A DNA stretch of 18,205 bases, taken from the IMG/VR virus record IMGVR_UViG_3300033405_000009, one strand, 5' to 3'. Positions 861 to 18,205 of the stretch are shown piece by piece. A model generated the notes under the pieces. The model was not told where the DNA came from. It searched no databases and worked only from the letters and a program-made list of their open reading frames with translations. A program made the position numbers and the translations under genes. Positions within the stretch are counted from its first letter, which is position 1. Each line of letters starts with the position of its first letter. Source of the stretch: a virus.

Positions 861-890
861 GAGTGAATTGTTCATCTGTTTTATGGTTAG

Positions 891-2030: not shown

Positions 2031-2070
2031 CGACCTAAGATGAGATGAAGGATCTATTGTATGCTCTCCT

Positions 2071-2467: not shown

Positions 2468-2486
2468 ATGGATTCTATCGAAAGTG

Positions 2487-2891: not shown

Positions 2892-2897
2892 GAAAAC

Positions 2898-3878: not shown

Positions 3879-4444
3879 TCCAAGAACTGCTCTTTCGTGT
3901 AGATGGCAATAGCTTCGATTCCGGCAGCTTTGAATGCCTCATCGGCGCCTTCATTACGATTTACAAGCCCCACAACCCCAAGCACCTCGAAGCCTTCATT
4001 TTTCAAGGTTTGGATCGCACGGAGTGAAGAACCGCCCGTGGTAAATACATCCTCAAGAAGGACTACGGGAGTACCAGCAGGAAGAGATCCCTTGCCTTCT
4101 ACAAGAGCGCCCGTCCCATGGTCCTTCTTGGCTTTCCGCACATAGAGGGCGGGCAAATCTTGGATTTCACTCACGGCACTCAAAAGAGATACCGCGCTGG
4201 CTAGAGGACAACCACCAAGTTCGACACCAGCTACGGCTTTAGCATCTGGGAAATTTGACGCGACCGCCTCCAGCATGACCTGTCCGGCCCACAAATGGCC
4301 TGTGGCGTCCAAAATAGCCTGTTTGCAGTCGATGAAGAAATCGCTTTCTTTGCCGGAAGCCAGAGTAAACTTCCCGAAACGGACCGATTTGGTCCGAAGT
4401 AGACGAGCGAGGTCCTTGTGCGGATCGGAGCCTAGGTGAATCAT
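3875..4444 (-). CDS. pyrE: orotate phosphoribosyltransferase
   Basis: 189 aa. FGKFTLASGKESDFFIDCK and the PRPP-binding motif VVLLEDVFTTGGS match OPRTase. TGA stop. Confidence 0.85.
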   Translation of the reverse strand: MIHLGSDPHKDLARLLRTKSVRFGKFTLASGKESDFFIDCKQAILDATGHLWAGQVMLEAVASNFPDAKAVAGVELGGCPLASAVSLLSAVSEIQDLPALYVRKAKKDHGTGALVEGKGSLPAGTPVVLLEDVFTTGGSSLRAIQTLKNEGFEVLGVVGLVNRNEGADEAFKAAGIEAIAIYTKEQFLE

Positions 4445-4452
4445 GGCTTACG

Positions 4453-4845
4453 TTACAGTAGGCGTCTTTGCATGAGATCGACTAATCGCATGACCATTTC
4501 TTCGTCGATATCATCACGTGGTTCCAACGGCTTGTAAGATTGCTCGTGTGGAAGTCCGAAATAAATATCGCAAATTCGGACTAGCGGAAGGCTTCCTACG
4601 GAATAGACATCAAGGATGGAACCTCGACATCTCGCTTTCGTCGCCGGGATTAACAGCCAGGAATGATCGGCCATCCCATGGTGACCGTCTTGGACCTCCA
4701 GGCCTAAGATGACTCCAACAGCCCGAGTGAGTTCGTGACAACGTAGCCCGGGAATTTCAGGGAGAGACTCCACGAGAACCCGAGCTACGCCGTACAACGC
4801 TTGTTCTTTCTTGGTGAAGACGTTGGTTACGCTATATCCTCTCAC
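4453..4845 (-). CDS. hypothetical protein (130 aa, GTG start as called)
   Basis: ORF only; TAA stop; no motif recognised. Confidence 0.35.
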   Translation of the reverse strand: MRGYSVTNVFTKKEQALYGVARVLVESLPEIPGLRCHELTRAVGVILGLEVQDGHHGMADHSWLLIPATKARCRGSILDVYSVGSLPLVRICDIYFGLPHEQSYKPLEPRDDIDEEMVMRLVDLMQRRLL

Positions 4846-4854
4846 ACGGTCAGC

Positions 4855-5193
4855 TTACGCCGACATGGACTCAGTTTCCGGCAACGCTAAACCAAGTCCT
4901 CGACACAACCGCCTAGATCGATCCCCTGGCTCGAGAGTAATCGCCGTCAACGCGTTGTTCATGTCAGGCTCTCGGAATTGAGAAATTTGAAGTCCTCGTT
5001 CCTCAGCCTTTTTCACGAGCATTCAAAGCTCGCGCTCGTCACGAACCGCGAGCATGGCGATGTAATTCGAGTTGCGGTACCAATCCATCCAGTCCGGATG
5101 CTCCGCTGCGTACGCCAGCGCTGCATGGATCGATTGCACTGCCTGATCCCCATCCGGAAGATCCGAACGAGTGATGACATACAACTTTTCCAT
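4855..5193 (-). CDS. PTH2-family peptidyl-tRNA hydrolase-like protein interrupted by an in-frame TGA at 5023-5025 (needs UGA readthrough); alternative start GTG at 5229
   Basis: Upstream part KLYVITRSDLPDGDQAVQSIHAALAYA...IAMLAVRDEREL resembles the PTH2 N-terminal half ([25 protein letters not shown]...). Directly after the TGA the same frame continues MLVKKAEERGLQISQFREPDMNNALTAITLEPGD and matches the PTH2 C-terminal half (...AEELGL...DAGRTQIAPGS.TVLAIGPGP). The ORF ends at TAA 4855-4857. Alignment was done from memory. Confidence 0.45.
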
Positions 5194-5197
5194 GAGT

Positions 5198-5614
5198 TTA
5201 GACCGTCGCTGCGACCATAGCCGCCTCACGTGGATAAGGAGCCTTCGGCCTCGGAGGAGGCGCCGAAATGGCCCCGGAGGGGTCCTGGAGCCAGCTCACG
5301 ATCTGCTCTTTCTTCAAGTCAGGCAAATGCTTCTGCAAGAGCTTGAAGAGGTAATCCGGGTAGGGCATGTTGTGTTCGAAATGCCACACATCCCCAACCT
5401 TTCGGATACTCACAGTGCCGACAGTGGACCAATAAGCGCCGTCCAATGCCTGCATGTGATGCGATCGTTCGATGCGCCTATACTTGAAACCCCTGATGTA
5501 ACCCCAAGCGAGATTACGATAGCGGTCTCCGTGTGAGCGATCTTCACGAATCGCGTTATGAAGCGCCTTTACCCGAGCGCGTTCGACGCGCTGTTCATCC
5601 GTCATCTGATACAT
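5198..5614 (-). CDS. hypothetical protein (138 aa)
   Basis: ORF with ATG start and TAA stop; basic and aromatic-rich; no family recognised. Confidence 0.4.
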   Translation of the reverse strand: MYQMTDEQRVERARVKALHNAIREDRSHGDRYRNLAWGYIRGFKYRRIERSHHMQALDGAYWSTVGTVSIRKVGDVWHFEHNMPYPDYLFKLLQKHLPDLKKEQIVSWLQDPSGAISAPPPRPKAPYPREAAMVAATV

Positions 5615-5759
5615 GGTAACTCTCCTGGTAAATGGTAAACGTCGTTGCGAAATTGGGAACGACGGACACCAGGAGGTCCACGGATGCAGTTAATTCAGAG
5701 GTGGTGCTTCATGATTCAACCATCATAACCGTTGTTGCTGCAGCTGTCAAGTTCGGGGT

Positions 5760-5832
5760 GCGCCGAGTCAGATTCGAACTGACACGTGCCCGCTTATGAG
5801 ACGGGGGCTCTGACCGATTGAGCTATCGGCGC
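5760..5832 (-). tRNA. tRNA-Met (anticodon CAU; elongator Met or Ile2-type cannot be distinguished)
   Basis: Reverse complement GCGCCGA-TA-GCTC-AATCGGTCA-GAGC-C-CCCGT-CTCATAA-GCGGG-CACGT-GTCAG-TTCGAAT-CTGAC-TCGGCGC. All arms are canonical. No C1:A72 mismatch or 3 GC anticodon-stem signature of initiators. CCA not encoded. Confidence 0.8.
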
Positions 5833-5841
5833 AGTATGTTG

Positions 5842-5913
5842 TCCGCCGCCCGGGAGTTGAACCCGACCACAAAGTTTATAGGACTTCGTAGCTCAACCGG
5901 AGCGTTGCGGCGG
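5842..5913 (-). tRNA. tRNA-like gene with apparent anticodon UAU (Ile, AUA-reading) but atypical C33 and a short D-loop; possibly aberrant or a pseudo-tRNA
   Basis: Reverse complement CCGCCGC-AA-C-GCTC-CGGTT-GAGC-TAC-GAAGT-CCTATAA-ACTTT-GTGG-TCGGG-TTCAACT-CCCGG-GCGGCGG. The 7-bp acceptor and T-arm are good. The anticodon loop CCUAUAA lacks the conserved U33. Confidence 0.45.
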
Positions 5914-5985
5914 GGATTTCGGATTTCTCCGATATATGTATCCTCCGCCGCATGGTTTTATGACCTCCGATTGACCTGATGTTGA

Positions 5986-6933
5986 TCAAGTGAGTTCTCG
6001 TACTCGTCGGACAATTTTGCGTACCCGCCATGGACGTAGCATCCCAACGACTCCGAGTTTTACAGCGGATACTCCGAGCCTCGTTAGAATCTCAGCGGCT
6101 TCCACCGACATTACCCCACCACCTACGATTAGGGGTTTCTTGAGCTTAGCCATTTTAGCTCTTTGAGCGATCTCAAGTACTAATGGAAAGATTGGATTCC
6201 CTGACATTCCACCACCCCCAATATGGGATAACGGAGAAGCAGACTGTCCCCAAATCTGATTCCAATTGATCTTATGGGATAGATTTCCCCATTTCAGTGT
6301 GTTGGAAACTGAAACTGCATCGCAAGCTGGGTGATTCATGACTTCCCGGATGATCTCCACTGAAATATCAGGTCCGAAGTTGGGGACGAGAGGGATTCCC
6401 AGAACCTTGGCAATGTCCAAAGCTCCACCAGCTTCTTCCGCAAGTTCGGACGTTGAAAGTCCAACATTCGGGCAAGAGAAATTCATTTCTAAAGCGAATG
6501 GACTTTTGAACTCCGGAATGTGAGGTTTGAGCATCTCGACGAAACTGTGAAGTTCCATCATTCTGTGGACGAGAGATGAATCCACGCTCATGAATGAGAT
6601 GAGGAACGGTCTCTCTCGAGCTTGCCATTTACCGCTCATGAGCAACGCATGAGCCCCAGGACCGCTTAATCCCACAGCATTTAGAACGGCCCCCTGAAGG
6701 AACTTAACCTTTATGCAAGAAGGGAGAAGGTCTTTCGGAGAGACTCCATCTGCCTCAAGAGGCATGTTCCCCGCACGGGGGTGGAGGGTCGTGGTTTTAG
6801 CAACGAAGGTGGCCCCTTCATAGTCAAGGCCGAATGGCTTCATTAGCCTATGATACCAATATCCATCTCCGTAAAACCCGAGGGAACCGGATGAGCACCA
6901 AACTGATCCGTATTCCGTCCCTCGTAACTTCAC
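5986..6933 (-). CDS. pyrD: dihydroorotate dehydrogenase, class 1 (active-site Cys)
   Basis: 315 aa. Motifs EMNFSCPNV, GGGGMSGNPIFPLVLEIAQRA and LIVGGGVMSVEAAEILTRLGVSAV. TGA stop. The GTG start as called is uncertain. Confidence 0.75.
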   Translation of the reverse strand: MKLRGTEYGSVWCSSGSLGFYGDGYWYHRLMKPFGLDYEGATFVAKTTTLHPRAGNMPLEADGVSPKDLLPSCIKVKFLQGAVLNAVGLSGPGAHALLMSGKWQARERPFLISFMSVDSSLVHRMMELHSFVEMLKPHIPEFKSPFALEMNFSCPNVGLSTSELAEEAGGALDIAKVLGIPLVPNFGPDISVEIIREVMNHPACDAVSVSNTLKWGNLSHKINWNQIWGQSASPLSHIGGGGMSGNPIFPLVLEIAQRAKMAKLKKPLIVGGGVMSVEAAEILTRLGVSAVKLGVVGMLRPWRVRKIVRRVRELT

Positions 6934-7015
6934 ATTTCACCTTCTAAAACCGGCCCTGTGCGGCATCGTAACCAGGATAGCGGTCCCTCATCGGTTCCAC
7001 CTGGACTAGGTAGAG

Positions 7016-7450
7016 CTATCTCGTAGCCGCTTCGGCGTATGCCTTAGCCGCCAGTTCCTTGGCTTCATCTTCTTCATCCGGCCAAGCCCAGCACATCCCC
7101 AGGAAGGGAGTCATAGACTGACGACCATACGAACAAGACGTTGCCCTTTCCAACTGCCAACCATAAGGATCGGTCTTGTTCTTATCATCAGAGACGTACA
7201 CGAGATTGCAGCATGGCACATAGAAGGCATTCTGATGCTCCGGAGAGTTGGTCAGATTGATTTCATCGTGCTTCTGCTTAAAATCTGCGACCGTTTGACC
7301 ATCCGGACCCCCATGGAACCAGTTAGTGACGATAGCATTGTGTGCGACCCGGTGACTGTCGAAGAAGATGACCCTACAGCCGATCTTGAATGCTCTATCC
7401 ATGATGCCCTGTCTTTCTACGGCTTCGAAGCCGCACAGGACAGGTTTCAT
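7016..7450 (-). CDS. hypothetical protein (144 aa)
   Basis: ORF only; TAG stop. Confidence 0.35.
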   Translation of the reverse strand: MKPVLCGFEAVERQGIMDRAFKIGCRVIFFDSHRVAHNAIVTNWFHGGPDGQTVADFKQKHDEINLTNSPEHQNAFYVPCCNLVYVSDDKNKTDPYGWQLERATSCSYGRQSMTPFLGMCWAWPDEEDEAKELAAKAYAEAATR

Positions 7451-7647
7451 CTCGACATTACCAAGAAAGGTCTAATATTGAACGACCAATTTGACTGGTA
7501 GTGTCGCTTTTGAGGATATGGCGAAATGAATTGGAACCATATCCTTGATTGTAAAAGGGATTGGGGATAACCGTCACTACTGTCGGAATCTCTTACCCTC
7601 GACCTGCTAATATGTGGGTTGAACACTTCACTCATCAAGAGGAAGCC

Positions 7648-7821
7648 ATGGCCGCTAAGAAGACTGCAAAGAAGACCGCCAAGAAGCCTGCTGCCAAAAA
7701 GACGGCAGCCAAGAAGGTTGCCAAGAAGACGGCGAAGAAGCCTGCTGCGAAGAAGGCTGTCAAGAAGGCTGCTGCGAAGAAGCCCTCGGCTGCGGCTACC
7801 GCACCGGCTCCTCAGGCCTGA
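7648..7821 (+). CDS. histone H1-like Lys/Ala-rich nucleoid protein (57 aa, AKKTAKKPAAKK repeats)
   Basis: ATG at 7648 preceded by aagAGGAAgcc (SD, about 5-nt spacer). Protein is MAAKKTAKKTAKKPAAKKTAAKKVAKKTAKKPAAKKAVKKAAAKKPSAAATAPAPQA. Followed by a strong intrinsic terminator. The longer ORF call from TTG 7561 and the alternative-frame ORF 7619-7885 are artefacts. Confidence 0.7.
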   Translation: MAAKKTAKKTAKKPAAKKTAAKKVAKKTAKKPAAKKAVKKAAAKKPSAAATAPAPQA

Positions 7822-7830
7822 AACGGTCTC

Positions 7831-7870
7831 ATCTAGGTCGGGGGTGGAATTTATCCCCGACCTAGATTTT
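7831..7870 (+). terminator. rho-independent terminator of the H1-like gene
   Basis: Perfect 11-13 bp inverted repeat atctaggtcgggg-gtggaatttat-ccccgacctagat followed by tttt. Confidence 0.65.
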
Positions 7871-7911
7871 CATAGTTGGCGTTGAGCTTTCCATCAAAAC
7901 GCTGACTTAAG

Positions 7912-8271
7912 ATGGATGAAGTCAATGATACCCCCCGAGTCTGTGAGGCTTGTGGAGGGGATAAAAGCACTACGTGTCATTGGTGCACCAGCGGATTTCA
8001 AAATTTAGTCCAGCAAGAACGTTGGCAGAAATTCCGCCAGAGAATGGGGAAAATCTCTGGGACTTATTCCTTGTTTCAAGGAATGGTTGAAGAGTTATTG
8101 GAACGCATCGACGGGTTAGAAGGCGAAGAAGCTCAGTCCTTGGTTGTGGAGGGTCGAGAGGCTCTATGCAAATGGTTAATTTCAGAGCACGGAACTCCTG
8201 ATAGAGACGAAGCCGGTAAAGCCCTATTGGTGAGTTACCGGCATTGTCTCGACTATTTCGCTAAGAGATAG
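7912..8271 (+). CDS. hypothetical protein with N-terminal Cys4 zinc-ribbon-like motif (CEACGG...CHWC)
   Basis: 119-aa ORF, TAG stop immediately abutting the convergent RF gene stop. Confidence 0.4.
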   Translation: MDEVNDTPRVCEACGGDKSTTCHWCTSGFQNLVQQERWQKFRQRMGKISGTYSLFQGMVEELLERIDGLEGEEAQSLVVEGREALCKWLISEHGTPDRDEAGKALLVSYRHCLDYFAKR

Positions 8272-8938
8272 TTACCAGTCCCCTCGCGAGTATTCCTTAT
8301 ATTTCCATTGTCGACCAGTTAGATGGTCATTGACTTGACCATCCTGAACTCGAACAGTTCTTCTCTTATCGCCGCGCATCCCGGACCCCACTTGAGCTCG
8401 TCGATCAGCGGCTCGAGCAGAAGTCACTCTTTCATGCTCCGAAGCCCAGAGACGGGCACGAAGAAGTGAAAGAGCGGTTTCCTTGTTCTGTTTGAGGCTG
8501 CGCTCTGTTTCACATCGAACTTGAAGCCCGGACGGTTCATGCTTTAGAATTATAGCCGTTTCGACTTTATTCCTAGCTTGTCCGCCGGCTCCGGATCCGC
8601 GAGTTGGGATCCATTCGAGATCGTCTTCTCGAATATGAACCTGCGCTTCAGTCGGGATGGGTAAAACTGCGACTGTAATAGTCGAAGTCTGAACCCGGCC
8701 CCTTTTCTCTGTTGGAGGAATCCGTTGCCAGCGATGCCCGCCGGACTCATTCGCAAAGGTCTCGTCTGCTGCCTTCCCGGACACTTGGAAGGTAACGATT
8801 CCCGGTCGTCTGTCCGCTAGTTCGACGTCAAAGACCCCTCCGGACTGCCAAACGGGCGTAAATTCCGAATTGCTCTTCTACGAGGAGTTTGGCGTCTGCG
8901 CCGCCTTCTGCTGCCCTGATCTCGACTACAATACTCAT
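8272..8938 (-). CDS. class-I peptide chain release factor, RF1-like and N-terminally truncated, requiring a +1 programmed ribosomal frameshift at 8828-8833 (CUU UGA C)
   Basis: Frame 0 from ATG (8936-8938, SD AGAGG upstream) gives MSIVVEIRAAEGGADAKLLVEEQFGIYARLAVRRGL then TGA. The +1 frame continues DVELADRRPGIVTFQVSGKAADETFANESGGHRWQRIPPTEKRGRVQTSTITVAVLP...RGSGAGGQ...RTVRVQDGQVNDHLTGRQW. This aligns contiguously with RF1 domains 2-4 (EIRAGTGG...RYAEARRW/RVEIM...GGHRVQRVPATE...SGAGGQ). Shift-site context ccGGAGGggtCTTTGAC matches GGAGG, 3 nt, CUU-UGA-C. Domain 1 (about 105 aa) is absent. The recognition loop PPT fits the RF1 PxT motif, not the RF2 SPF motif. Confidence 0.75.
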
Positions 8939-9090
8939 GATCCTTACCTCTTTCCGTGTGAAGACACGAAGAACACGCGCACAAACTGTCGATCGAGGCT
9001 AAGGAGCTTCGTCGTTGACAGGCAGGGGTGCGCGGATTGGGAAGAGGATCACGTCAACCTGAATGGATGCTCTTATGGAGCTTCACATCT

Positions 9091-9300
9091 TCATTTTACA
9101 ATCGAAGACTTAAGCGTCCCATCAGGATTGCGAAGGGGATGTTGTTCGAATTTGGGGCGCTTAGGTCCGCAGTGGCCATCCGGCATCACTGCGACACGCA
9201 CATACTTGCCTATGGTTCCAGCGTCCGGATGCCCGCAAGTCAGGTCATCATCCGGTTCCATGTAGGAATGGACGCATGCTTGACAGTTGGGCGAGTTCAT
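9091..9300 (-). CDS. small Cys/His-rich protein (about 69 aa) whose ATG overlaps the SPFH gene's TGA stop (ATGA)
   Basis: MNSPNCQACVHSYMEPDDDLTCGHPDAGTIGKYVRVAVMPDGHCGPK...; TGA stop at 9091. Tentative. Confidence 0.3.
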   Translation of the reverse strand: MNSPNCQACVHSYMEPDDDLTCGHPDAGTIGKYVRVAVMPDGHCGPKRPKFEQHPLRNPDGTLKSSIVK

Positions 9301-10316
9301 TTCTTGACGTCGAGTCCGAACATGAGAGGGCTGCCCTGCGGGAGGATATTGGCTGGCATTCCGCCGTTCCACTTCTTGGCCGCTTCGAGCATAGCCTCGG
9401 CTTGCATGCGCTGAATATCAAGGTGATTCTTCTCGATCAGAGCTTCCTTGGCCTTGGCGAATTCTTCGGCCGCCATACGTTCGGCCCTCGCTGCAGCGAT
9501 CTTCTGCTCATTCTTCTGCTCATTCGCGACTTTCTCTTTACGGGCGATTTCGATGTTCATTTCGGCGTTGGCCGTTTCGTTGATTGCTGCCTGAATCTTG
9601 TCATCGAAGGCCAGACCACCCGCACTTCCGACGTTCTGTACGGTGATTCCGTACGTCTTGAAGTGCTCCTTCGTAAGTTTCTCAACCTCGGCGAACACTC
9701 GACTCTTCTGGACTTTGCACTCCTCCAAGGTCAGGACACCGAATGCCTTCGAAAGCTCGCCCTGAATGAAACCGCGGACGTTCTGATCAACGACTTCTTT
9801 GAGTTGCTTCGTGGTGTGGTAATAGAGATAGACTGGGGCGTCCTCCTCCATTACGAAGGCAGTCATGTTCACACCCACGTGAAAGTTGATACTTTCTTTC
9901 GACTCCACCTCGATGGCTCGCACGTCTTCAACGGGACCGGGAGCCGCTGCGGGTGCTCCAGGAGCTGCGGGTGCTGGAGCCTTGGCTGGCGGCGACGCGT
10001 CGTTCTTGATCCACTCGCGCGTAACGAGACTCCTGTCGACCTTAACGACTCGGACGGTGGGAATCCACTCGTAGTCCCACCACATTCGCCCCGTATCTCG
10101 CTCGCGTACGGAGATCTCGATACGCTTTGCGACGACCTTCTTGGACTCGAGATACTTGATGCTCTCGAACTTCTCCTGTTCCTTGCTGTTTCCTTCGAGA
10201 GGAATGACGAAGGCTGTCTCGTTCGGCCCAACGTTTTCGAGTGGCAGAACTTTCGCCGGGCCACACCCGATCAGGGTGAGCGCGAACATGATGAACCCAA
10301 CATTCGACAGCTTCAT
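9297..10316 (-). CDS. SPFH/band-7 (stomatin/flotillin-like) domain lipoprotein
   Basis: Probable start MKLSNVGFIMFALTLIGC (lipobox LIGC) at 10316, sharing TAATG with the upstream gene. C-terminal SPFH-like region GITVQNVGSAGGLAFDDKIQAAINETANAEMNIEIARKEKVANEQKNEQKIAAARAERMAAEEFAKAKEA. Ala/Pro linker. The antisense ORF 9276-10469 is a shadow. Confidence 0.6.
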   Translation of the reverse strand: MKLSNVGFIMFALTLIGCGPAKVLPLENVGPNETAFVIPLEGNSKEQEKFESIKYLESKKVVAKRIEISVRERDTGRMWWDYEWIPTVRVVKVDRSLVTREWIKNDASPPAKAPAPAAPGAPAAAPGPVEDVRAIEVESKESINFHVGVNMTAFVMEEDAPVYLYYHTTKQLKEVVDQNVRGFIQGELSKAFGVLTLEECKVQKSRVFAEVEKLTKEHFKTYGITVQNVGSAGGLAFDDKIQAAINETANAEMNIEIARKEKVANEQKNEQKIAAARAERMAAEEFAKAKEALIEKNHLDIQRMQAEAMLEAAKKWNGGMPANILPQGSPLMFGLDVKK

Positions 10317-10591
10317 TACCGGTCTCCGTTTGTATTTGGCTTGGTCCAAGGAACGATCCAGATAAGGAAAAGAATTACTGCGAAGAGAGCAAAGCAGGCC
10401 ACATCCGGTAGACTCAACCGACTGATGATCGTCGGAGAACCCATGGGAGTAGCGACGTCTCGCGCCTGACTCAACGCAGCCGCAGTTTCGAAGGGATTGT
10501 ACGCGGCTTGTAAGGCCGCATGAAGCCAGTACATCAAACCGAAAGCGACGAATGTGAAGATGAGTCGCTTAATGAGAGATTCGGTCTTCAT
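10316..10591 (-). CDS. small two-TM membrane protein (91 aa), translationally coupled to the SPFH gene (NfeD-like partner role possible)
   Basis: Hydrophobic segments LIFTFVAFGLMYWL and VACFALFAVILFLIWIV; TAA stop overlapping the next start. Confidence 0.45.
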   Translation of the reverse strand: MKTESLIKRLIFTFVAFGLMYWLHAALQAAYNPFETAAALSQARDVATPMGSPTIISRLSLPDVACFALFAVILFLIWIVPWTKPNTNGDR

Positions 10592-10923
10592 GGGGTTACT
10601 GCTCCAGGTGGCATCGCCATGTTACATGGAACGAAGAATCTTGGAGATGGAGTAGAAATGTCGTGCAAGAAGCAGTATCCGCCTTGCTCATAGAGCACGT
10701 ACGAGCGAGCAGGCTTCGAACTTGACCCATGAGTCTGAGTTTCTGGCTTGTAAGGGACGTACCAGATGATTTTTCGTTCCGGCTCCATCCCAATTTGGGC
10801 CTGGACATATTTGATGACCTGTTCCTTGCTCGGAGCCTCAGGAAGGTCGTCATCGCATCCGGTCAGACAGATGGAAATAACCAAGACCTCCAAGAAGCAA
10901 ATGGGCTTACGGAGTCTGATCAT
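10588..10923 (-). CDS. small lipoprotein (internal start MIRLRKPICFLEVLVISICLTGC, lipobox LTGC)
   Basis: The N-terminal extension of the called ORF is Ser/Arg-rich and non-protein-like. An internal Met gives a classic signal peptide plus lipobox. TGA stop overlaps the next start. Confidence 0.45.
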   Translation of the reverse strand: MIRLRKPICFLEVLVISICLTGCDDDLPEAPSKEQVIKYVQAQIGMEPERKIIWYVPYKPETQTHGSSSKPARSYVLYEQGGYCFLHDISTPSPRFFVPCNMAMPPGAVTP

Positions 10924-11275
10924 CGACATCGGACTTCTCCTGGGCAGCAAGATTAGCGTCATATTCTGCCTTCTTGACGTCGTATTTCTCGGAATCGTTG
11001 TGCTCCCGCATCTCATTGATGCTGAAGTATCCGGCTTGCCACATGATGCCCTGTGCGAAACACAGCCACCGTTCGGCCTTGCGGACTCGGCTTTCGTTTC
11101 CTGCACTGGTCTCTACCATCTCGCGAATTTTCGGCAGCATCCACATGATGTGCTTGGCTGCCTTCTCCATCCCAGGAGGAGTCAAGTCTTTGTCGACTTC
11201 CTCAGGCTTCACCCGAGTGCGACGGAGAGCTTCCTCGTACCACAGACAGACCTGGATAATCTGATCGGCTCGCAT
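10907..11275 (-). CDS. hypothetical protein (122 aa)
   Basis: ORF with ATG start and TAA stop; charged helical composition. Confidence 0.45.
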   Translation of the reverse strand: MRADQIIQVCLWYEEALRRTRVKPEEVDKDLTPPGMEKAAKHIMWMLPKIREMVETSAGNESRVRKAERWLCFAQGIMWQAGYFSINEMREHNDSEKYDVKKAEYDANLAAQEKSDVDDQTP

Positions 11276-11294
11276 GGAACCCCGTACATCCGGA

Positions 11295-11927
11295 CTAATC
11301 AGACTTGCGCGTCCAGATAGTCATCATATCATCTCTTTCGAACCATCGTGGGATTTCAACTGTCTTGGAAAGAATGAAATTCTTTCGGAGGACTTTATAG
11401 AACGATGCCCCTGCAGTCATTCCATTGAAGTCCCCAACATAAATGAGAGTTTGACCTTTCCAATATTTCAGACAATCTTTAGCAACCATATGTCTTTTAG
11501 ACTCAGGTGCTAGAGGCTGTTCCATTGGAGGCCAGCATAAGAAGAGGGACCTGTCTCGATATTGTTTCAAATCCCGGGGATCACCCCGGGAAATGAAAGT
11601 AAAAAGATTACCTCCAACATGCCACGGATTGATTCCGAATGGGTCATATCGATCGTAGGCGATAATATCAACCCCGATATATCGGAGTAAATGCGCCCAA
11701 TAACCCATACCGGCCCCCATTTCAACTATCGGGCCATGGGTTGCAATTTCTAGTAACGCCTCCTCAGTAGGTATCGCCCAAGAGATATTCATGCACTCTC
11801 GCATGACTTGGCGGGCTTTGCTGCAATGTTCTAGTGGAAGGCAGTCCAAATACCTGCGGAGGAGGACGTTTTCTCGATGAAGATCTTTATCTTTACCGAT
11901 CCACCTCCGAGAGGATGAGCGGTTCAC
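11295..11927 (-). CDS. putative class-I SAM-dependent methyltransferase
   Basis: Motif I-like IVEMGAGMGYWAHLL, followed by an acidic beta2 end DIIAYD and a possible motif-IV-like CWPP. GTG start overlapping the upstream TGA (GTGA). Confidence 0.45.
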   Translation of the reverse strand: MNRSSSRRWIGKDKDLHRENVLLRRYLDCLPLEHCSKARQVMRECMNISWAIPTEEALLEIATHGPIVEMGAGMGYWAHLLRYIGVDIIAYDRYDPFGINPWHVGGNLFTFISRGDPRDLKQYRDRSLFLCWPPMEQPLAPESKRHMVAKDCLKYWKGQTLIYVGDFNGMTAGASFYKVLRKNFILSKTVEIPRWFERDDMMTIWTRKSD

Positions 11928-12556
11928 TCTGACTTGGGATCTTTGGGCTTGGGCTCCTCCTTCTTCGGCGGAAGCTCCAATTTGCGAAGCAGATCCGGAT
12001 TTTTGAGCTGGGCCACCACCGGACTCATCCCCTGAACCAGAATGCGGAGTCCCTGATCCCGGATCTGGGTCGGATCAATGGCTGCATGGGTCTCGGCCAG
12101 TCGCTTGGCACTATTGGCTAGACGTCGGCTGTTGCGAAGCAGGTCGGTACCGGCCAAGTCCTCATGATCCGAGGTAGCCCGGACCCCGGCCTCCTGGTCG
12201 CGAGGTGATGGAACGGTCCGACGCTTGTATGTCTCCCAGAGAATGCGCTTGATTTGATCCATCTTGCGCTTACGAATGGTCTCAACATCCGGATCAGAGG
12301 GCTTCGGCAAGCGAGGCTTGATGTAAGCATGCTTCGCGAGCCAAACGTAGGGCACGAATCGCTTGGGAGCGACTCGAGCGGCCCAATCGAGAAATTGAGC
12401 GGCCCTGTGGACCTCGGACAGATTCCTGTCCGGGTCGAAATCTTCGAAGCTAATAGTCTTCAGCTTGGGCTTCTTCACCAGCACTTGAGGTGCCGAAGCG
12501 GGTGGCGGCCCGGGTGCTCGGTTAGTGGCCTTCATGGGTACGCTCTCCAGTCGCAT
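11924..12556 (-). CDS. hypothetical basic protein (210 aa)
   Basis: ATG start, TGA stop; Pro/Lys-rich termini. Confidence 0.45.
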   Translation of the reverse strand: MRLESVPMKATNRAPGPPPASAPQVLVKKPKLKTISFEDFDPDRNLSEVHRAAQFLDWAARVAPKRFVPYVWLAKHAYIKPRLPKPSDPDVETIRKRKMDQIKRILWETYKRRTVPSPRDQEAGVRATSDHEDLAGTDLLRNSRRLANSAKRLAETHAAIDPTQIRDQGLRILVQGMSPVVAQLKNPDLLRKLELPPKKEEPKPKDPKSE

Positions 12557-13523
12557 GGGAATTCAACCCTTTCACGTAAGTTTCAAGTACAGCGAGCGAT
12601 TCGATCACTGTCTGGTACTCTTGCACCTTGTTAGTTTCCCCACCATTGTGATCGGGATGAAGTTGTGCGGCTCTTTTGAGCATTGCTCGTTTCGCCGCAG
12701 TGAGGTTGATCTCCTTCCCAAACGTAAATCCTTGCCCGAGCCCAAGGACTTCACAGGCCTTCCTAAACTCGTCGCGAGATACCTTCTTGGCCTTTGCCGA
12801 CTTCACGGCGGTAGCCCTCAGTCGATTAACATTCCGCCGTAGATCTTCACATGCTTCATGGACGAAGTGTCGAAAGTCATCTACAGCTTTCTGTTGCTCG
12901 TGAAAATCTACATCTTTATACTCAACCATGCTAGCTCGCACGAAATCTTCTACCAATACATTGAGTCGAACCAACAACGTTTTTGACCTGGACTGTTGCG
13001 AATCCATGCTTAGAAATGACGGCTCTTCACCTGCCCCATTTACCGGCATTGCCGCCGGAAGAGGCGTTGATACCGGCGGTGCAGATGACCGTTGAGATTT
13101 CGAGTACGGTGCGGCCTTCCTGAATTTTCGACCATCCGGAGTACTCGCCGAGTATCCCGATTTTTCGTAGTCGTCGATTACGTATTCTGCCGCATCGACG
13201 AATTCCATATTCTCTTTCTCAGCCAGTGCTTTACTCTCTCGATACAAGCGGATCACGGTGTACTGAGCCACACCTTTATCTAGCATGTTCCAGAAAGAAT
13301 TAACCCACGGTCCGCTATTCAGCAGCGTGGATCTGTGATCGTAATCCTGCCTTGAGCCACCTAGAAACCGAGCGAGCACGATCCCGAATGGGCCACGGGG
13401 CTGCGGATCTTCATCGAAGATCGCATTACGAATCTCCTTTTCGAGTTCTGCCTTCCGCTTCCAATTCGTGGAATTGGCAGTTTGCTTATACTGGGTAATC
13501 AACCCTTGCAATCTGCTAGTCAT
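12522..13523 (-). CDS. J-domain (DnaJ-like) protein with C-terminal J domain (DjlA-like architecture)
   Basis: C-terminal DEFRKACEVLGL...LTAAKRAMLKRAAQLHPDHNGGETNKVQEYQTVIESLAVL contains the HPD tripeptide in J-domain helix II/III context. ATG at 13523. Confidence 0.6.
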   Translation of the reverse strand: MTSRLQGLITQYKQTANSTNWKRKAELEKEIRNAIFDEDPQPRGPFGIVLARFLGGSRQDYDHRSTLLNSGPWVNSFWNMLDKGVAQYTVIRLYRESKALAEKENMEFVDAAEYVIDDYEKSGYSASTPDGRKFRKAAPYSKSQRSSAPPVSTPLPAAMPVNGAGEEPSFLSMDSQQSRSKTLLVRLNVLVEDFVRASMVEYKDVDFHEQQKAVDDFRHFVHEACEDLRRNVNRLRATAVKSAKAKKVSRDEFRKACEVLGLGQGFTFGKEINLTAAKRAMLKRAAQLHPDHNGGETNKVQEYQTVIESLAVLETYVKGLNSHATGERTHEGH

Positions 13524-14841
13524 CAATATCCCCCACGTCTAGCAGAAGGGCGGGATCCAGGTCTGCATTATTTGCAACCATGGACTGAATCCGGCGCATT
13601 TCTCCAGTGAGCTTATGAAGCGATGTCATGACTTGACCAAGTTTGTTCACTTCTTGCTGTTTGATGGCCGACTCGACTGCTTGGGCTACTTCGATTCTGA
13701 TGGAACTTACAGACGGGACTGCGATTTGAACCGCGTCCATGATGGCTTGAATGTCAATGGTAGACTCGGATCTCTCCTCCAGGGCTTGCACCCTTCGGGA
13801 AAGATCCGAGATCTGCTCGAAGATTTGATCCCCGCGGTCTTTGATGAAGACGATATTTTCCACCACTCGAAGTTGAATTTCACCCGATTGAGTCAACAAC
13901 TCCTGCATCATCTTGATCGCATTGACGAGATCACCAGTGCCTCCGAGCATAGGCATTGGAATGGGAAGAGGGACCTGTTGAGTATGAGGTGCCTCATCGT
14001 CTTCCTCTTCGACAAAGACGAGTCCATCTGAATTGAGACGCTCCCACATCCTCTGAGAGCCACCACCTGGCATCTTCCGATTGCCTTTATTGACCCAACC
14101 GAGCTCCCTCAAAATGCCACCGATTCTGGCTCGGTGGGCATTGTGGACGATTTCTCTGTCCAATCCGATTGCTTCCACCAGAATATCAGTAGTGGTAACT
14201 TGTCTTTTGTCCGCTACATACTCTTGGACTTTATCTTCCCAGGTTGCCTCTTCCTCAATTACTTCTTCGGCTTGAGACTCTTCTTCGGAAGATTCCTCGG
14301 TCTCTCCTTCCGATTCAGCTTCTTCGGAAAACTCTTCTTCCTCTTGACTTACGAGGTCCGTCACGGTTTCTGGCTCCGGCTCCGGCTCTGGATCCGGCTC
14401 TGGATCCGGCTCTTGTTGCGAAGCCAATTTCAAATTGGCGAGGTTTTCGAAAGGACGACTGGTGAGAGTATTCTTTGAACTTTGGCTCGCACTACGCAAG
14501 ATCAAATTCTCCATCTTGCTCCCTGGCAAGGTGCAACCGCTCAAGAGGTCATTTACGGGAGCACCGTCACCTCTCTCTAGAAGAGAGTATGCAGCCCCCA
14601 GGCTCGGTTTCTCTCTTGGTTGACTACAGCTTACGATTCCCTGCCTATACAGGACTGCCATGAAATCCCGTTGCCATGTTCTGTCTGAAGCTTCGGCGCG
14701 GATGATGGAACTGGTTTCAGAATCGCGAGCAGGGAACTTGTCGAATAACTCCGAAAGGCGATTTTCACCATGAACGCTTCGAAGAATTCTCAACGCTCGT
14801 GCGACGAGTTCCTTCCTAGCTCTCAACCTGTCGGGACTCAT
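13516..14841 (-). CDS. large acidic protein with (E/D-P)n repeat, Glu-rich tract and C-terminal coiled coil; central segment possibly winged-helix-like
   Basis: 441 aa. QQEPDPEPDPEPEPEPETV...EEEEFSEEAESEGETEESSEEESQAEE. TAG stop. Confidence 0.5.
   Translation of the reverse strand: MSPDRLRARKELVARALRILRSVHGENRLSELFDKFPARDSETSSIIRAEASDRTWQRDFMAVLYRQGIVSCSQPREKPSLGAAYSLLERGDGAPVNDLLSGCTLPGSKMENLILRSASQSSKNTLTSRPFENLANLKLASQQEPDPEPDPEPEPEPETVTDLVSQEEEEFSEEAESEGETEESSEEESQAEEVIEEEATWEDKVQEYVADKRQVTTTDILVEAIGLDREIVHNAHRARIGGILRELGWVNKGNRKMPGGGSQRMWERLNSDGLVFVEEEDDEAPHTQQVPLPIPMPMLGGTGDLVNAIKMMQELLTQSGEIQLRVVENIVFIKDRGDQIFEQISDLSRRVQALEERSESTIDIQAIMDAVQIAVPSVSSIRIEVAQAVESAIKQQEVNKLGQVMTSLHKLTGEMRRIQSMVANNADLDPALLLDVGDIDD
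14373..14414. repeat. tandem hexanucleotide repeat (ggctcc/ggctct/ggatcc, 7 units) encoding the EPDP repeats of the minus-strand gene
   Basis: Direct reading of ggctccggctccggctctggatccggctctggatccggctct. Confidence 0.8.
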
Positions 14842-14875
14842 GTGGTGAGATCATTTACTCCTGATTATTCCCAAC

Positions 14876-15754
14876 TTACGCTCGGGGCGGTGGATAAGCC
14901 ATCACTCGAGAGCGCAGGGACTCAGCCTTGGTTCGACTGCAATTCAAAAGCAAGTGTAGACGAGGGTTATTTCGAAGCCTCTCCACATCTCTATAAAGAT
15001 CATATATTTTAATATCGCGAAGAGGCACAATAAAGCCTCCTCCTGGGGAGGTACGAAATGCGATTGCGCACATGTGCGATCCCGGCCCGTATATGGAACT
15101 GCTTGAATACCGCATGCGAGCCAGAAACTCTGGCTTATAACCTAATTTCTTTTCTAGGAAAGATTCCACCGCTTCAATTCGAGAAAATCCTGTAAATTTC
15201 TTTTCTCTCCCAATAGAAAAATTGCACGCCACGATTCCTCCCGGAGCGACAGCTTTTGCAGCCGCACCAATCCGATTTAGCGTGTAGTCAGAAACTTGAT
15301 TTGAGAAATCCAGATAAATAGATTCGAATGGGATGTGAATGTCGTCTAGGACCTTCGATACGTCTGTATGTAAGATCGTGATGGTTGGAAACTTAACAGA
15401 GAAATTTTCGACGGCTTCTTTGTCAATGTCCACGGCCAACATACTGTCGTCACTAACTCGCAAACCTCTGAGGACTGATGCGTCTCCTCCTTCGCTTGAA
15501 GACAGAAACAGATGAGGACCACTGCGGAAGCGCTTTGGTCCAAGTGCTTCCATAACAGCCTCCCAAATGCGGAGACGGACTGCTTTTTTAGGTTGACTGT
15601 CTCCCCGGTAAGTGCACCGGGTGGCCCTCGTTGGACCCGGTGCACTCGTAGCACACATCGCTCTTATCTCTTCGAGAATGAGTTCTCGAAGAGATTCACC
15701 TACGAGACGTTTAAGGGCCAACCGCGGAGTCATCACTCCACGCGATCGTAGCAC
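14876..15754 (-). CDS. hypothetical protein (292 aa), possibly Rossmann/methyltransferase-like (LAVDIDKEAVENF ... FESIYLDF)
   Basis: ORF with TAA stop; weak motif resemblance only. Confidence 0.4.
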   Translation of the reverse strand: MLRSRGVMTPRLALKRLVGESLRELILEEIRAMCATSAPGPTRATRCTYRGDSQPKKAVRLRIWEAVMEALGPKRFRSGPHLFLSSSEGGDASVLRGLRVSDDSMLAVDIDKEAVENFSVKFPTITILHTDVSKVLDDIHIPFESIYLDFSNQVSDYTLNRIGAAAKAVAPGGIVACNFSIGREKKFTGFSRIEAVESFLEKKLGYKPEFLARMRYSSSSIYGPGSHMCAIAFRTSPGGGFIVPLRDIKIYDLYRDVERLRNNPRLHLLLNCSRTKAESLRSRVMAYPPPRA

Positions 15755-16221
15755 TTCTTGAGGTGCGTGAATGTCATGTGCTTGGCCTGAGTCCGACCCT
15801 TCTCGCTCTTGAGAATCCTCGGGGTAATACCAGTGACATCCATGGACGCGATCTCAATGATCCTATCCTTTACATCGAGATAACTCTTTCCCTTGAATTG
15901 CTGCCCCAGCGCCAAGCCCATCTGACGGGCTACCCTGGGAACCACCGGGGTCTTAGCTTGAAGAGGTGCCGAACCACGAAGCTGCTTGTTTGCAGCCCTC
16001 TTCTTGGCAGCCTTCTTGGCAGATGCACTTCGCTTCGGGTCGGGCGCCTTCTTTGCAGAGGTTGCAGGAGTAGCGAGGGTAGACTCTGGCTCAATGTCCG
16101 GTACCTCCTCTCTCGTGAGTTCCTCCATGAGGACCTCTCGGACGGTCTCCCGGACCAGCTTTCGAAGATCAGCCCCAACGGTTTCTCGAACGATTTCCTT
16201 GACCAGACTTCGTAGATTCAT
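15733..16221 (-). CDS. Lys/Ala-rich putative DNA-binding protein (internal ATG at 16221 preceded by GGAGG)
   Basis: Repeats LVKEIVRETV / LVRETVREVL, then KKAPDPKRSASAKKAAKKRAANK, then a globular C-terminus. SD ggttcGGAGGattcaATG. Confidence 0.45.
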   Translation of the reverse strand: MNLRSLVKEIVRETVGADLRKLVRETVREVLMEELTREEVPDIEPESTLATPATSAKKAPDPKRSASAKKAAKKRAANKQLRGSAPLQAKTPVVPRVARQMGLALGQQFKGKSYLDVKDRIIEIASMDVTGITPRILKSEKGRTQAKHMTFTHLKKCYDRVE

Positions 16222-16266
16222 TGAATCCTCCGAACCTGGAATACGCAACACCTAGAATGATTTACG

Positions 16267-17547
16267 CTACGACGATTTCCTGGTAGTCAAGGCCTCGAGA
16301 GTAAGTTCTTGCAGAACTTCTACCTCATCAGTTGCCGCGCTCAATCGTTTCATAATGGCATCAGCGCGACGACGCCTGTCATCTTTCAATGCGGTAGTCA
16401 ACATCCGGATTTCTTTGAGAACAGGTTCCACAACCGTATCTCGAAGCAATTCGATCGATTTTTCTGCTGCTTGAATATGACCAGCCGCATTAGTGGCAGA
16501 CACGGCATTCATTTTCTGCTCAATAGACTTGGCCTGATTCTCATGCAAAGTCCGGATTTGATTATTCAAGTCGGACTTCATAAGGTCCAACTTCATTTCA
16601 AATTTGATCATGTGCCCATTCATGGCAACTAGATCTCCCTCCAGCGTATCAAGCCTTCGAGTAGTCTTATCGACATTCTCACCCAGAATCTTGAAAATTG
16701 AATTTTGTGATTTCAGCGTGTCGAGAATTTTCGACAGAATCTCAGCCACAGCATGATCTGACTTTTCCTCGGATGATGGAGCGACAGATGACTCTGTAGA
16801 CGCCACCAATTCGGCTTCTACGACTGCGATCTTTTCCTCCATCGGAGGACCCGCAGAAGTCTCATCCTCTTCATCCTCACTTTCTTCATCCTTCTTCTCA
16901 GGGCTTTCTGACTGGCCATGACTGGCCTTGCAAGGGTCATTTGGATTGATCAGAGTGAAGAGACACGGTTCTGTCTGCCCGTCGATGAGCTTTTGGATTT
17001 CCTCTTTGTTGAGGATTTCTAAAGTAATTTTGGCTCCCTCTCCTTGAAGCTTCAGATAACCCTTCTCGACGAGGCCATCGATCAAGACGTTTTGCCAAGT
17101 CGGGATTCTGGCCACTCGCTCTTGATACCTGTCACCCTTCTTTGGAACAAACATGTTCCGTTTAATCATGGGTGAGGTGGACTGTGAAAGACGACGCAAT
17201 CCGCGGGTCGCCACAGCGACCTTTGCATTTAATTCTCTCATGGAAACAGCATATGAATTCCGCACGTCGCCACCATTCTCTTTGGTATAGGATGCAAGAT
17301 CTCCTGATACTTCTTTCAGAGCTGTCTGGATTCTGGTGTTAGAACTCGGGAAGTAACAGTCTTCCCCCTTCCTTCTACTAAGGACGACATCATTCCCCGT
17401 TGCAAGGGTTCGCATAACTGCTACTTGCCAAGAACGTGAGATTGGCCCACAACCAACGAAAATTTCCGATACAGGCATGGGCTGCTTAGCATTCTTTAGG
17501 ACGCTAAGTACATGCAGAAGAATTTGACATTTCTCTGCTTGATTCAC
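16267..17547 (-). CDS. hypothetical protein (426 aa) with acidic linker (EESEDEEDE) and long C-terminal coiled coil
   Basis: ORF with TAG stop; heptad-rich C-terminal 150 aa. Confidence 0.45.
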   Translation of the reverse strand: MNQAEKCQILLHVLSVLKNAKQPMPVSEIFVGCGPISRSWQVAVMRTLATGNDVVLSRRKGEDCYFPSSNTRIQTALKEVSGDLASYTKENGGDVRNSYAVSMRELNAKVAVATRGLRRLSQSTSPMIKRNMFVPKKGDRYQERVARIPTWQNVLIDGLVEKGYLKLQGEGAKITLEILNKEEIQKLIDGQTEPCLFTLINPNDPCKASHGQSESPEKKDEESEDEEDETSAGPPMEEKIAVVEAELVASTESSVAPSSEEKSDHAVAEILSKILDTLKSQNSIFKILGENVDKTTRRLDTLEGDLVAMNGHMIKFEMKLDLMKSDLNNQIRTLHENQAKSIEQKMNAVSATNAAGHIQAAEKSIELLRDTVVEPVLKEIRMLTTALKDDRRRRADAIMKRLSAATDEVEVLQELTLEALTTRKSS

Positions 17548-17576
17548 GCGATCCGCTACGCGAGATGAATTTGCAT

Positions 17577-18205
17577 CTACGATTTCGGTCCAGTGAAAGC
17601 GATGATCTCACCAGCTGGTTTGCGATAATCTGCGGGACCGCCTACGGACCTTGTGCCCGTGAAAGTGTCCATATCGAATCGGCTGTAGAGACGGAGCGCG
17701 TCTTCGGCCACTGAATTGCTCAAGACCGTGCGTACCCCATCTTCACCCAAATCTGTGAAGACTTTCGCAAGCAGTTCGTGTTGCTCGAGAGTGAATCCGT
17801 TCGCAGTATATGATGTGAACTTGGAGGTTTTAGAAACGGGGATATAGGGAGGGTCGAAATATACGGCATCTCCATGCTTTGCCTTCAAGCAGATATTCTG
17901 GAATGAATCTGTACAAAGTTCGACATTTTCCTGCAGAACGGCCGAAACTGCTTCCAAATTCTTCTGATCGCAAATGAGCGGGTTTGTGTATTTCCCGAAT
18001 GGTGTATTGAATTTTCCATCAAGGTTTACACGATAGAGCCCATTGAAACCCGTGCGATTCAAATAGATGAACCGTGCGGCTACTTTGATCGAATCCAATT
18101 TCTCAGGATCCAGCTTACGAATGGCTAAATACGCCTGTTTCTCATAGACATATTTGCTCTTCCGAAGCTCGCGAATGAGTTCGGGAAGACTGTCTCGAAT
18201 GACTT
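17577..18205 (-). CDS. Dam-type DNA adenine-N6 methyltransferase (D12 class); 5' end lies beyond the window edge
   Basis: Motifs FIYLNRTGFNGLYRVN and DAVYFDPPY (DPPY motif IV). The frame stays open from the called TTG at 18098 upstream to position 18205 (...IRDSLPELIRELRKSKYVYEKQAYLAIRKLDPEK...), so the N-terminal SAM-binding part is outside the window. Confidence 0.8.
   Translation of the reverse strand, partial: VIRDSLPELIRELRKSKYVYEKQAYLAIRKLDPEKLDSIKVAARFIYLNRTGFNGLYRVNLDGKFNTPFGKYTNPLICDQKNLEAVSAVLQENVELCTDSFQNICLKAKHGDAVYFDPPYIPVSKTSKFTSYTANGFTLEQHELLAKVFTDLGEDGVRTVLSNSVAEDALRLYSRFDMDTFTGTRSVGGPADYRKPAGEIIAFTGPKS

Follow-up and report, generated by a model that had tools for sequence, protein, structure and literature searches.

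The IMG/VR virus record IMGVR_UViG_3300033405_000009 holds, within the 18,205-nucleotide stretch of DNA analysed here (hereafter the window), nine consecutive open reading frames (ORFs) on the minus strand, which run from position 10907 to the window end and which an initial reading made from the letters alone (hereafter the sequence-only reading) took for a tightly coupled cluster of unknown proteins ending in an orphan-looking Dam methyltransferase. All nine are real, as an independent gene call on the source contig, a 62.9-kb metagenomic sequence (ENA ERZ27256913 k141_649736), gives the same genes. Comparison with related loci moves the emphasis from Dam to three of them, namely a scaffold gene (g441, with a paralogue, g426), a gene for a J-domain protein (g334J) and a gene for a basic, predicted winged-helix protein (g210b), which together form a conserved cassette of huge phages. 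Read from the Dam end, the array comprises the following features:

17577..18205, minus strand: C-terminal 209 codons of Dam, a D12-class N6-adenine DNA methyltransferase whose first 70 codons lie past the window end
16267..17547, minus strand: g426, built of two basic winged-helix-like repeats in tandem (aa 6-79 and 108-191), an acidic linker and a coiled coil at the C-terminus; opens the six-gene module
16975..17226, minus strand: second winged-helix-like repeat of g426, with the signature A..AL..LL..P....LF..[loop]..WQ..hh..Lh..G.h..[wing]..Y
15733..16221, minus strand: g172, 162 aa as called, with an amphipathic helix at the N-terminus, a basic stretch rich in Lys and Ala and a small domain at the C-terminus; stop and g292 start overlap in TGATG
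14876..15733, minus strand: g292, predicted class I (Rossmann-like) S-adenosylmethionine (SAM)-methyltransferase fold with an N-terminal helical extension
13516..14841, minus strand: g441, built of one winged-helix-like repeat (aa 8-102), an insert (aa ~163-270), an acidic linker of EPEPE type and a coiled coil at the C-terminus; opens the putative ancestral cassette
12522..13523, minus strand: g334J, with an N-terminal domain (~150 aa), a Pro-rich linker, a helical region and a C-terminal J-domain; overlap of 8 nt with g441 and of 14-35 nt with g210b
12567-12758, minus strand: J-domain of g334J (~aa 257-320), HPD at 12651-12659
11924..12556, minus strand: g210b, predicted basic winged-helix protein with a long helical extension; most widespread cassette member
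11295..11804, minus strand: g210mt, small phage class I SAM-methyltransferase-like protein, 169 aa as called (longest ORF to 11927); accessory
10907..11275, minus strand: g122, small accessory protein (phrog_7775, 5e-11)

The eight junctions between these genes were measured twice, from the called starts and from the longest ORFs (positive values are gaps and negative values overlaps, in nucleotides):

Dam to g426: called +29, longest ORF +29
g426 to g172: called +45, longest ORF +15
g172 to g292: called -1 (TGATG), longest ORF -22
g292 to g441: called +34, longest ORF +34
g441 to g334J: called -8, longest ORF -11
g334J to g210b: called -35 (-14 if Met8 is the start), longest ORF -35
g210b to g210mt: called +119, longest ORF -4
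g210mt to g122: called +19, longest ORF +19

Depending on the starts used, three or four of the eight junctions overlap, so that the tight coupling claimed for the array holds there and fails at the others, where gaps separate the genes. The overlaps between g172 and g292, g441 and g334J, and g334J and g210b are also present among the genes called in three related lineages (L004, L007, L023) and, being kept there, look selected. Across the 35-nt overlap of g334J with g210b (12522-12556), both reading frames are conserved in five lineages, encoding the J-protein terminus G-[DE]-R-S-H-E-G-[RH] and the g210b start M-R-x-E-x-x-x-M-K; a GGAGAG sequence lies 7 nt ahead of Met8 of g210b, and this methionine may be the true start, in which case the conservation upstream would be imposed by the J frame. 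The cassette as a whole is predicted to be translationally coupled. Promoter-like sites in the array stay at the level of shuffled sequence (6 vs 6.2), terminator-like sites lie slightly above it (13 vs 8.1 +/- 3.1), and none with a coding-strand orientation was found in the intergenic gaps of the array. An iteron-bearing replication origin inside the cluster was considered and ruled out, as there are no such repeats. At one end, a divergent 78-aa gene lies upstream of Dam, which is therefore the first gene of the array; at the other, the same-strand array runs on past 10907 through SPFH, release-factor, dihydroorotate dehydrogenase, phosphoribosyltransferase, VanW and amidase genes, and the lower boundary drawn at 10907 is arbitrary.

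Conservation is concentrated in the middle of the array. The order g426, g172, g292, g441, g334J, g210b is kept in six lineages (the window, L012, L007, L013/L014, L004 and L023) at 25-57% identity, and L039 carries a partial module, g292 through g210b, on a contig that is cut. A full HMMER scan of 1.84 billion representatives returned 212 clusters (50% identity) related to g210b, the best 150 of which measure 100-217 aa, mostly 165-205. The J gene lies immediately upstream of the gene of the g210b family in 19/19 loci, and the order scaffold, J-protein, winged helix holds in 15/15, these being the loci whose contig reaches far enough upstream; the ancestral unit is therefore likely to be the three-gene cassette, whose winged-helix protein measures ~175-205 aa. 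The 427-kb viral contig L029 carries this unit in tandem duplication (4008-8833), scaffold, J-protein and winged helix occurring twice, with a first scaffold copy that is basic overall (isoelectric point, pI, 9.6), unlike all other scaffolds. In the window clade, g172 and g292 occupy the place of the first J and winged-helix genes of L029, and the six-gene module appears to have arisen there by duplication of the scaffold gene (g426, g441) with g172 and g292 inserted between the copies. Judged by gene order and similarity, the conserved core is thus the scaffold/J/winged-helix trio, a set that appears to be previously undescribed, and not Dam, which had been put forward as the defining gene: Dam is found with the cluster only in L012, whereas the six genes are syntenic in six lineages and the three-gene core extends wider still. 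As a separate observation on one carrier, the first gene downstream of the cassette on a 131-kb viral contig (L030 6936-8060) encodes a tyrosine integrase (Phage_integrase 1.7e-32, with a SAM-like domain at the N-terminus) and is followed by a DUF1643 gene, which hints that some carriers may be temperate.

An alignment-based scan of viral contigs recovered relatives; a single-protein scan of viral contigs with g292 gave no match. Megablast of the cluster against GenBank phages was equally empty, as were tblastn searches of 50,697 GenBank phages, for which g210b, two of its distant relatives, the family consensus and the J-protein served as queries, and of PLSDB plasmids, queried with g210b; GTDB species genomes, scanned by pattern, also yielded no relative. 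The cassette is likewise absent near the sheath genes of the cultured phage Tunturi_5 and of LR745208.1. Except for the J-domain, the three cassette families have no sequence match in Pfam, PHROG, NCBIfam or PDB. In other phages, the neighbours of the cassette are often genes for nucleic-acid enzymes, including DNA ligase, NT5C, MazG, GIY-YIG, Endonuclease VII, RtcB and Mom.

The two scaffold families align collinearly in hhalign (115-487 vs 8-356; probability 98.4%, E 5e-15) and are paralogues, a kinship that emerges by profile comparison only, as BLAST among the nine proteins gives no paralogy. Iterated searching with a hidden Markov model delineates a repeat of ~85 aa, with two copies in each g426 orthologue, one in g441 orthologues and three in the L032 protein; a word-indexed homology search with this 85-aa repeat found no match. 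The repeats are basic (pI above 8 in 22/23), and the scaffold proteins are acidic overall owing to their linkers. Alignment of the g426 orthologues confirms the coiled coil with acidic linker described by the sequence-only reading and adds an invariant C195-x10-C206-x3-H210 motif. The C-terminal part of g426 matches coiled coils only in PDB profile searches, and the same searches with g292, g210b, g426 and g441 gave nothing significant except coiled coils.

In g441, what is conserved is the basic N-terminal repeat and the C-terminal coiled coil. The hyper-acidic tract, which had suggested a DNA mimic, is largely absent from the L007 and L013 orthologues (296-329 aa), where a short EPEPE-type stretch remains, and no conserved, structured acidic array of the Ocr/ArdA kind was found as the functional core of g441; the mimic proposal thus loses its ground, and the tract appears to behave as a variable linker. 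The g441 insert, consisting of the acidic tract and a piece resembling a winged helix-turn-helix (wHTH), is lineage-specific. In the window, aa 163-271 match the helicase C-terminal tail of PHROG 256/1313 (2.5e-6 and 7e-5), and in the L004 orthologue (L004 10898-11986, from the 383-kb phage GCA_902731255.1) an RNA_pol_A_CTD domain at aa 103-163 (27.5 bits vs a cutoff of 23.8) stands in place of the acidic/wHTH insert.

The J-domain noticed at the C-terminus of g334J is borne out by an HPD motif that is invariant in 12/12 orthologues, down to 18% identity, and by a match of the family profile to the J-domain of E. coli DnaJ (E 8.4e-9, over helices II-III); the single-sequence Pfam J-domain match of g334J stays below threshold (17.2 vs 27.8 bits). 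Pfam and NCBIfam scans found no DnaJ_CXXCXGXG, DnaJ_C or G/F region in g334J. With a C-terminal J-domain and without the G/F, zinc-finger and DnaJ C-terminal domains, the protein is therefore assigned to class C (type III) of the J-proteins and is not a DnaJ orthologue. Its N-terminal domain appears to be specific to this cassette, and the J-proteins have a pI of about 9 (7.1 in L032).

The basic character ascribed to the 210-aa protein g210b extends to its whole family, with a pI of 9.2-10.6 in 60/60 members, and this uniformly high value speaks for DNA binding, which may be inferred for the family. An AlphaFold2 model built from 60 sequences (pLDDT 90.9) shows a winged-helix core followed by long helices, so that a winged-helix fold is predicted with confidence. 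A BFVD fold search with g210b returned matches to uncharacterised phage proteins only, and Pfam and PHROG scans of the family found no match.

Of the two genes special to the six-gene module, g292 had been credited with weak Rossmann-like motifs, an assignment that can be raised to a class I methyltransferase fold on the evidence of a model (pLDDT 84) with seven strands in the Rossmann-like methyltransferase arrangement. Its invariant residues fit motifs I, II and IV, motif I being atypical yet invariant as E-G-G-D-A-S, and D109 is an invariant acidic residue at the end of strand 2. The best family match, Pfam Methyltransf_35, is sub-threshold in the six matching of nine members (best E 1.4e-3), and no NCBIfam match was found. 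Related folds include RlmI and RsmB (rRNA m5C), PrmA and Trm1, at 11-18% identity; in comparison with these, g292 carries motif I as EGGDAS instead of GxGxG, has its own N-terminal helix and C-terminal helices, and belongs to no Pfam family at threshold. The gene g172 encodes a protein with a pI of about 10 and has orthologues in L012, L007, L013 and L023, together with a 64-aa remnant in L004. Between its N-terminal helix with the AKKA patch and the extension at the g292 N-terminus there is a weak likeness (blastp E 0.02; hhalign probability 30-34%), which could reflect partial duplication or a shared docking helix.

The remaining genes, Dam, g210mt and g122, accompany the cluster only in the closest lineage, L012, where the g122 orthologue, found in L012 only, adjoins g210mt, and the three are best regarded as lineage-specific add-ons. 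The complete Dam gene encodes 279 aa (L001:9132-9971). Its identification holds throughout: the in-window part matches Pfam MethyltransfD12 (PF02086, 2e-33), the full-length match to NCBIfam TIGR00571 scores 232.8 bits against a cutoff of 114.85 (E 5.7e-69), the PADLOC orphan-methyltransferase models MTase_II/oMTase give 7e-82 and 5e-73, and the FxGxG and DPPY motifs are present as EPFLGGGA and FDPPY. Among the called genes, Pfam detects no restriction-enzyme family within ~9 kb upstream and 17 kb downstream, and the downstream neighbour of Dam, g426, is conserved without it in other lineages. Dam is thus a genuine orphan, as first supposed, an ordinary member of its family and an accessory to the cluster. 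It shares with the phage orphan Dams of T4 and P1 (TIGR00571) the D12 domain, the FxGxG/DPPY motifs, the lack of an adjacent restriction enzyme and the phage origin, shows no notable difference from them, and stands outside the conserved module. Most likely it methylates GATC on the phage DNA as ordinary self-protection against restriction. Avoidance of GATC was looked for in the window and not seen (114 sites vs 130 +/- 10 expected). Ahead of Dam, the 210-nt divergent intergenic region contains two TGATCAC copies ~34 nt apart (L001 9020-9075), each with a GATC, and this pair could provide methylation-sensitive control of the Dam promoter.

For g210mt, the SAM-methyltransferase-like character proposed at the outset is upheld by matches to phrog_19090 (3.9e-25) and, weakly, Methyltransf_23, and by tblastn relatives in PhiCh1, phiH, HGTV-1, Goslar, AVP1 and LR756500, some of which are annotated as class I SAM methyltransferases. 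The family appears to be a small, methyltransferase-like phage family present in haloviruses and in jumbo phages such as Goslar.

The window is DNA of an uncultivated huge (jumbo) myovirus, and neither chromosome nor a small mobile element, because it carries a tmRNA, tRNAs and an amidase gene, has fibre-like genes just past its end and has homologues confined to viral contigs that carry a giant tail sheath gene. The presumption that this was a phage region and not a housekeeping operon is thereby vindicated. Within the window itself lie a tmRNA, four tRNAs, an amidase gene and a release-factor fragment, a set of genes in keeping with the account of huge phages in PMC7162821. The searches located homologues of the cluster proteins on metagenomic viral contigs (111-436 kb) and in NCBI assembly GCA_902731255.1, which consists of one contig of 382,860 bp, and nowhere else. 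The viral-contig relatives encode a conserved protein of 1.7-1.9 thousand residues, 54-75% identical between lineages, that has relatives with a tail-sheath annotation in cultured phages, these matches covering the C-terminal 350-390 residues only or, in the nearest cultured relative, Tunturiibacter phage Tunturi_5 (309 kb, 31% identity), 58% of the protein; it has no PDB sequence match.

Taken together, these features are tentatively read, with a confidence a little short of even, as those of a nucleic-acid-bound complex of the cassette proteins that would be remodelled, through the J-domain, by the host DnaK. The scaffold protein would dimerise and act as a multivalent platform, with one to three basic repeats, a flexible acidic linker and a coiled coil; the basic winged-helix domains would bind nucleic acid, most probably DNA; and the coiled coils would pair these domains, possibly as a g426/g441 heterodimer. 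The J-protein would dock on this complex, its HPD loop loading the host DnaK (Hsp70), which might then assemble, activate or dismantle it in the service of genome replication or organisation, or of transcription take-over. All globular parts of the cassette proteins are basic, and DNA is the suggested ligand because the alpha-CTD and helicase-tail inserts and the nucleic-acid-enzyme neighbours point to it.

Several known systems offer partial parallels. In archaeal Sso10a and in eukaryotic Hop2-Mnd1, as predicted for the scaffolds, an N-terminal winged helix is followed by a dimerising coiled coil; Hop2 and Mnd1 are a paralogous pair that heterodimerises, and the two scaffold paralogues may by analogy do the same. 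Sso10a-2 (E 0.07) and the Hop2 winged helix (E 0.47) are the best PDB matches of the scaffolds, neither significant, and the scaffolds differ in repeat number (1-3), acidic linker and Cys/His motif. With regard to chaperone recruitment, DnaJ and DnaK remodel the lambda O-P-DnaB complex and, for P1, F and RK2, the Rep initiators, which are winged-helix proteins; SV40 T antigen employs a J-domain of its own. The likeness to the cassette, a winged-helix DNA binder together with a J-domain that brings in Hsp70, may be no closer than analogy: T-antigen J-domains are among the weak profile matches of the J-protein, but in the lambda and Rep systems the J-protein is the host DnaJ, and the cassette lacks iterons and any O, P, Rep or T-antigen homology outside the J-domain.

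Among phage proteins, the closest precedent is Rki (ORF 057w) of the T4-like phage RB43, which is reported to be the first functional phage-encoded J-domain protein and is described as an ORFan stabilising sigma-32 (PMC3486835). Rki and g334J are both phage-encoded, have a J-domain with HPD as their sole recognisable chaperone element and are presumed to act on host DnaK; by way of difference, g334J carries its J-domain at the C-terminus, and its gene always sits in a fixed trio with two predicted winged-helix proteins. No sequence relation between the two was seen outside the J-domain, tblastn of g334J against GenBank phages being empty. Few phage-encoded J-proteins are described in the literature retrieved, and what phage DnaJ-like genes do is, according to a 2025 survey, poorly understood (PMC12619734).

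Several results tell against a DnaK-remodelled nucleoprotein complex. No iterons or origin-like repeats were found in or beside the cluster; the scaffold repeat is called winged-helix-like on the basis of its signature and of weak PDB matches of its helix-3-plus-wing segment to Sso10a-2 (E 0.07) and the ArsR-type regulator YgaV (E 1); the folds closest to g292 belong to methyltransferases that act on RNA and protein, not on DNA; and DnaK recruitment is read from J-domain conservation only. In addition, five lineages have a giant sheath gene no more than a few kb from the cassette (L007 1263-6359; L023 11651-17479; L013/L019, for the lineage L013/L014; L029 8897-12379; L031 1208-4495), and the cassette stands beside collagen-like fibre genes in the window phage and in L029, an adjacency that a virion or assembly role would fit equally well. 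Under such a role, a serious rival yet, on the whole, one that we consider unlikely, the acidic coiled coils would be scaffolds or assembly chaperones, the J-protein would recruit DnaK for very large structural proteins such as the sheath, and the winged helices would be protein-interaction modules or internal proteins that coat the DNA and are packed in the head. Acidic, helical coiled coils are typical of phage scaffolding proteins, and one weak PDB match is to a scaffold-tropomyosin chimera (E 0.13); viral J-domains, moreover, aid capsid assembly in polyomaviruses, according to work cited in PMC12619734. The cassette, however, usually lies on the strand opposite the sheath gene or is separated from it by nuclease genes, other loci have DNA ligase, NT5C, MazG or RtcB as neighbours, no PHROG structural match was found, the basic globular domains and the alpha-CTD/helicase-tail inserts point to nucleic acid, and a methyltransferase and a Dam gene would be odd company for a scaffold. 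An RNA-directed role is a weaker rival than this virion-assembly or DNA-coating role, and its probability is rated low: the basic proteins would bind rRNA, tRNA or mRNA, g292 would methylate RNA, and the J-protein would bring DnaK to ribosome-associated complexes, in a take-over of translation. Such a module would suit the top structural neighbours of g292 (rRNA m5C methyltransferases, PrmA and tRNA methyltransferases), the tmRNA, release-factor fragment and tRNAs of the window, one of them UGA-suppressor-like, and the weak profile matches of g210b to uS4/eS9 (E 0.15) and of the helical region of the J-protein to bS20 (E 0.04). Yet these ribosomal matches fall short of significance and are of the kind that basic helical proteins commonly give, the wider cassette lacks g292 and g172, the translation genes are unlinked to the cassette in other lineages, and the alpha-CTD and helicase-tail inserts are DNA-side domains.

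The defence or anti-defence module suggested by the sequence-only reading, in which Dam, an acidic DNA mimic and the J-protein would counter host immunity, fares worse and is left with a slim chance. An orphan Dam is a classic phage anti-restriction device, the one in the window matches the PADLOC orphan-methyltransferase models, and the acidic tract of g441 is striking; in addition, a bacterial NACHT protein senses phage with the participation of host DnaJ (PMC12169576), and a phage J-protein could conceivably interfere with this sensing. Comparison with PADLOC-DB v2, however, finds only Dam, apart from marginal matches of the coiled coil to Avs2 (0.0033) and of 35 g292 residues to DruM (0.0033); the orthologues do not conserve the acidic tract; Dam accompanies the module in just one other lineage; and the cassette keeps a strict order across very divergent sequences, in which it differs from counter-defence islands with their fast turnover. 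Slimmer still, and already disfavoured, is the chance that unrelated phage ORFs merely share a direction of transcription and have no joint function. Phage genomes are ordinarily made up of long same-strand arrays with short gaps, this one runs on beyond the nine genes, and three of the nine are not conserved with the rest; against this stand the trio order kept in 15/15 loci, down to ~20-30% identity, the overlaps kept with it, and the duplication of the cassette as a unit in L029.

The cassette fits a known theme, the hijacking of Hsp70 by viral J-domains. What is new is the finding of a J-protein in a fixed and apparently translationally coupled trio with two families of basic proteins predicted to be winged-helix or winged-helix-like. 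A more far-reaching proposition, that the trio is a hitherto unrecognised machine confined to huge phages whose own dedicated J-domain adaptor lets host Hsp70 drive assembly or turnover of a phage nucleoprotein complex, is speculative and, taken as a whole, doubtful. If it were true, the complex could be an organiser of replication or transcription, or could condense the genome, as a bacterial-virus counterpart of the T-antigen J-domain strategy, and in the window clade this machine would additionally be coupled to a new methyltransferase. Such a mechanism would reveal how giant phages put host Hsp70 to work on a task associated with the genome, and three protein families and a winged-helix repeat would be newly defined; should it prove false, a well-delimited conserved module would still be available for the annotation of huge-phage genomes. 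The orphan Dam, the initial point of interest, belongs to known biology as an ordinary accessory gene.

Further features of the window and its flanks are the following:

2817-2891, minus strand: tRNA with anticodon UCA, 75 nt (ARAGORN label SeC; Rfam tRNA, 61 bits)
888-1240, minus strand: tmRNA with the tag ANDNAARLAA, near the UCA tRNA
8272-8784, minus strand: class I release-factor fragment, 170 aa, comprising the end of PCRF and the RF-1/GGQ domain
1467-10349, minus strand: auxiliary genes for Amidase_2, VanW, phosphoribosyltransferase, a divergent dihydroorotate dehydrogenase and SPFH/Band 7, on the same strand as the cluster
L001 1481-3448: tRNA genes for Pro, Ser (three), Thr and Gln, six in all, some 6-8 kb past the Dam end

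Beyond the Dam end, collagen-like tail-fibre genes follow on the other strand (within the ten kb past the window end, L001), and the ten kb past the opposite end hold an HNH gene, a sigma-70-type factor and an AAA_28 protein. The UCA tRNA looks like a UGA suppressor and, together with the tmRNA and the release-factor fragment, might point to UGA recoding elsewhere in the genome. Within the nine-gene cluster, the stop codons are a mix of TAA, TAG and TGA and the ORFs are intact; the region therefore reads in the standard code, and stop-codon recoding across the cluster is ruled out. The pyrimidine-synthesis pair among the auxiliary genes of 1467-10349, phosphoribosyltransferase and dihydroorotate dehydrogenase, is unusual in a phage. 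Finally, one of the few plus-strand ORFs of the window (7561-7821) encodes an 86-aa Lys/Ala-rich product with AAKKTAKKPAAKK repeats that resembles an H1/HU tail and coincides with tandem repeats of 12-54 nt.

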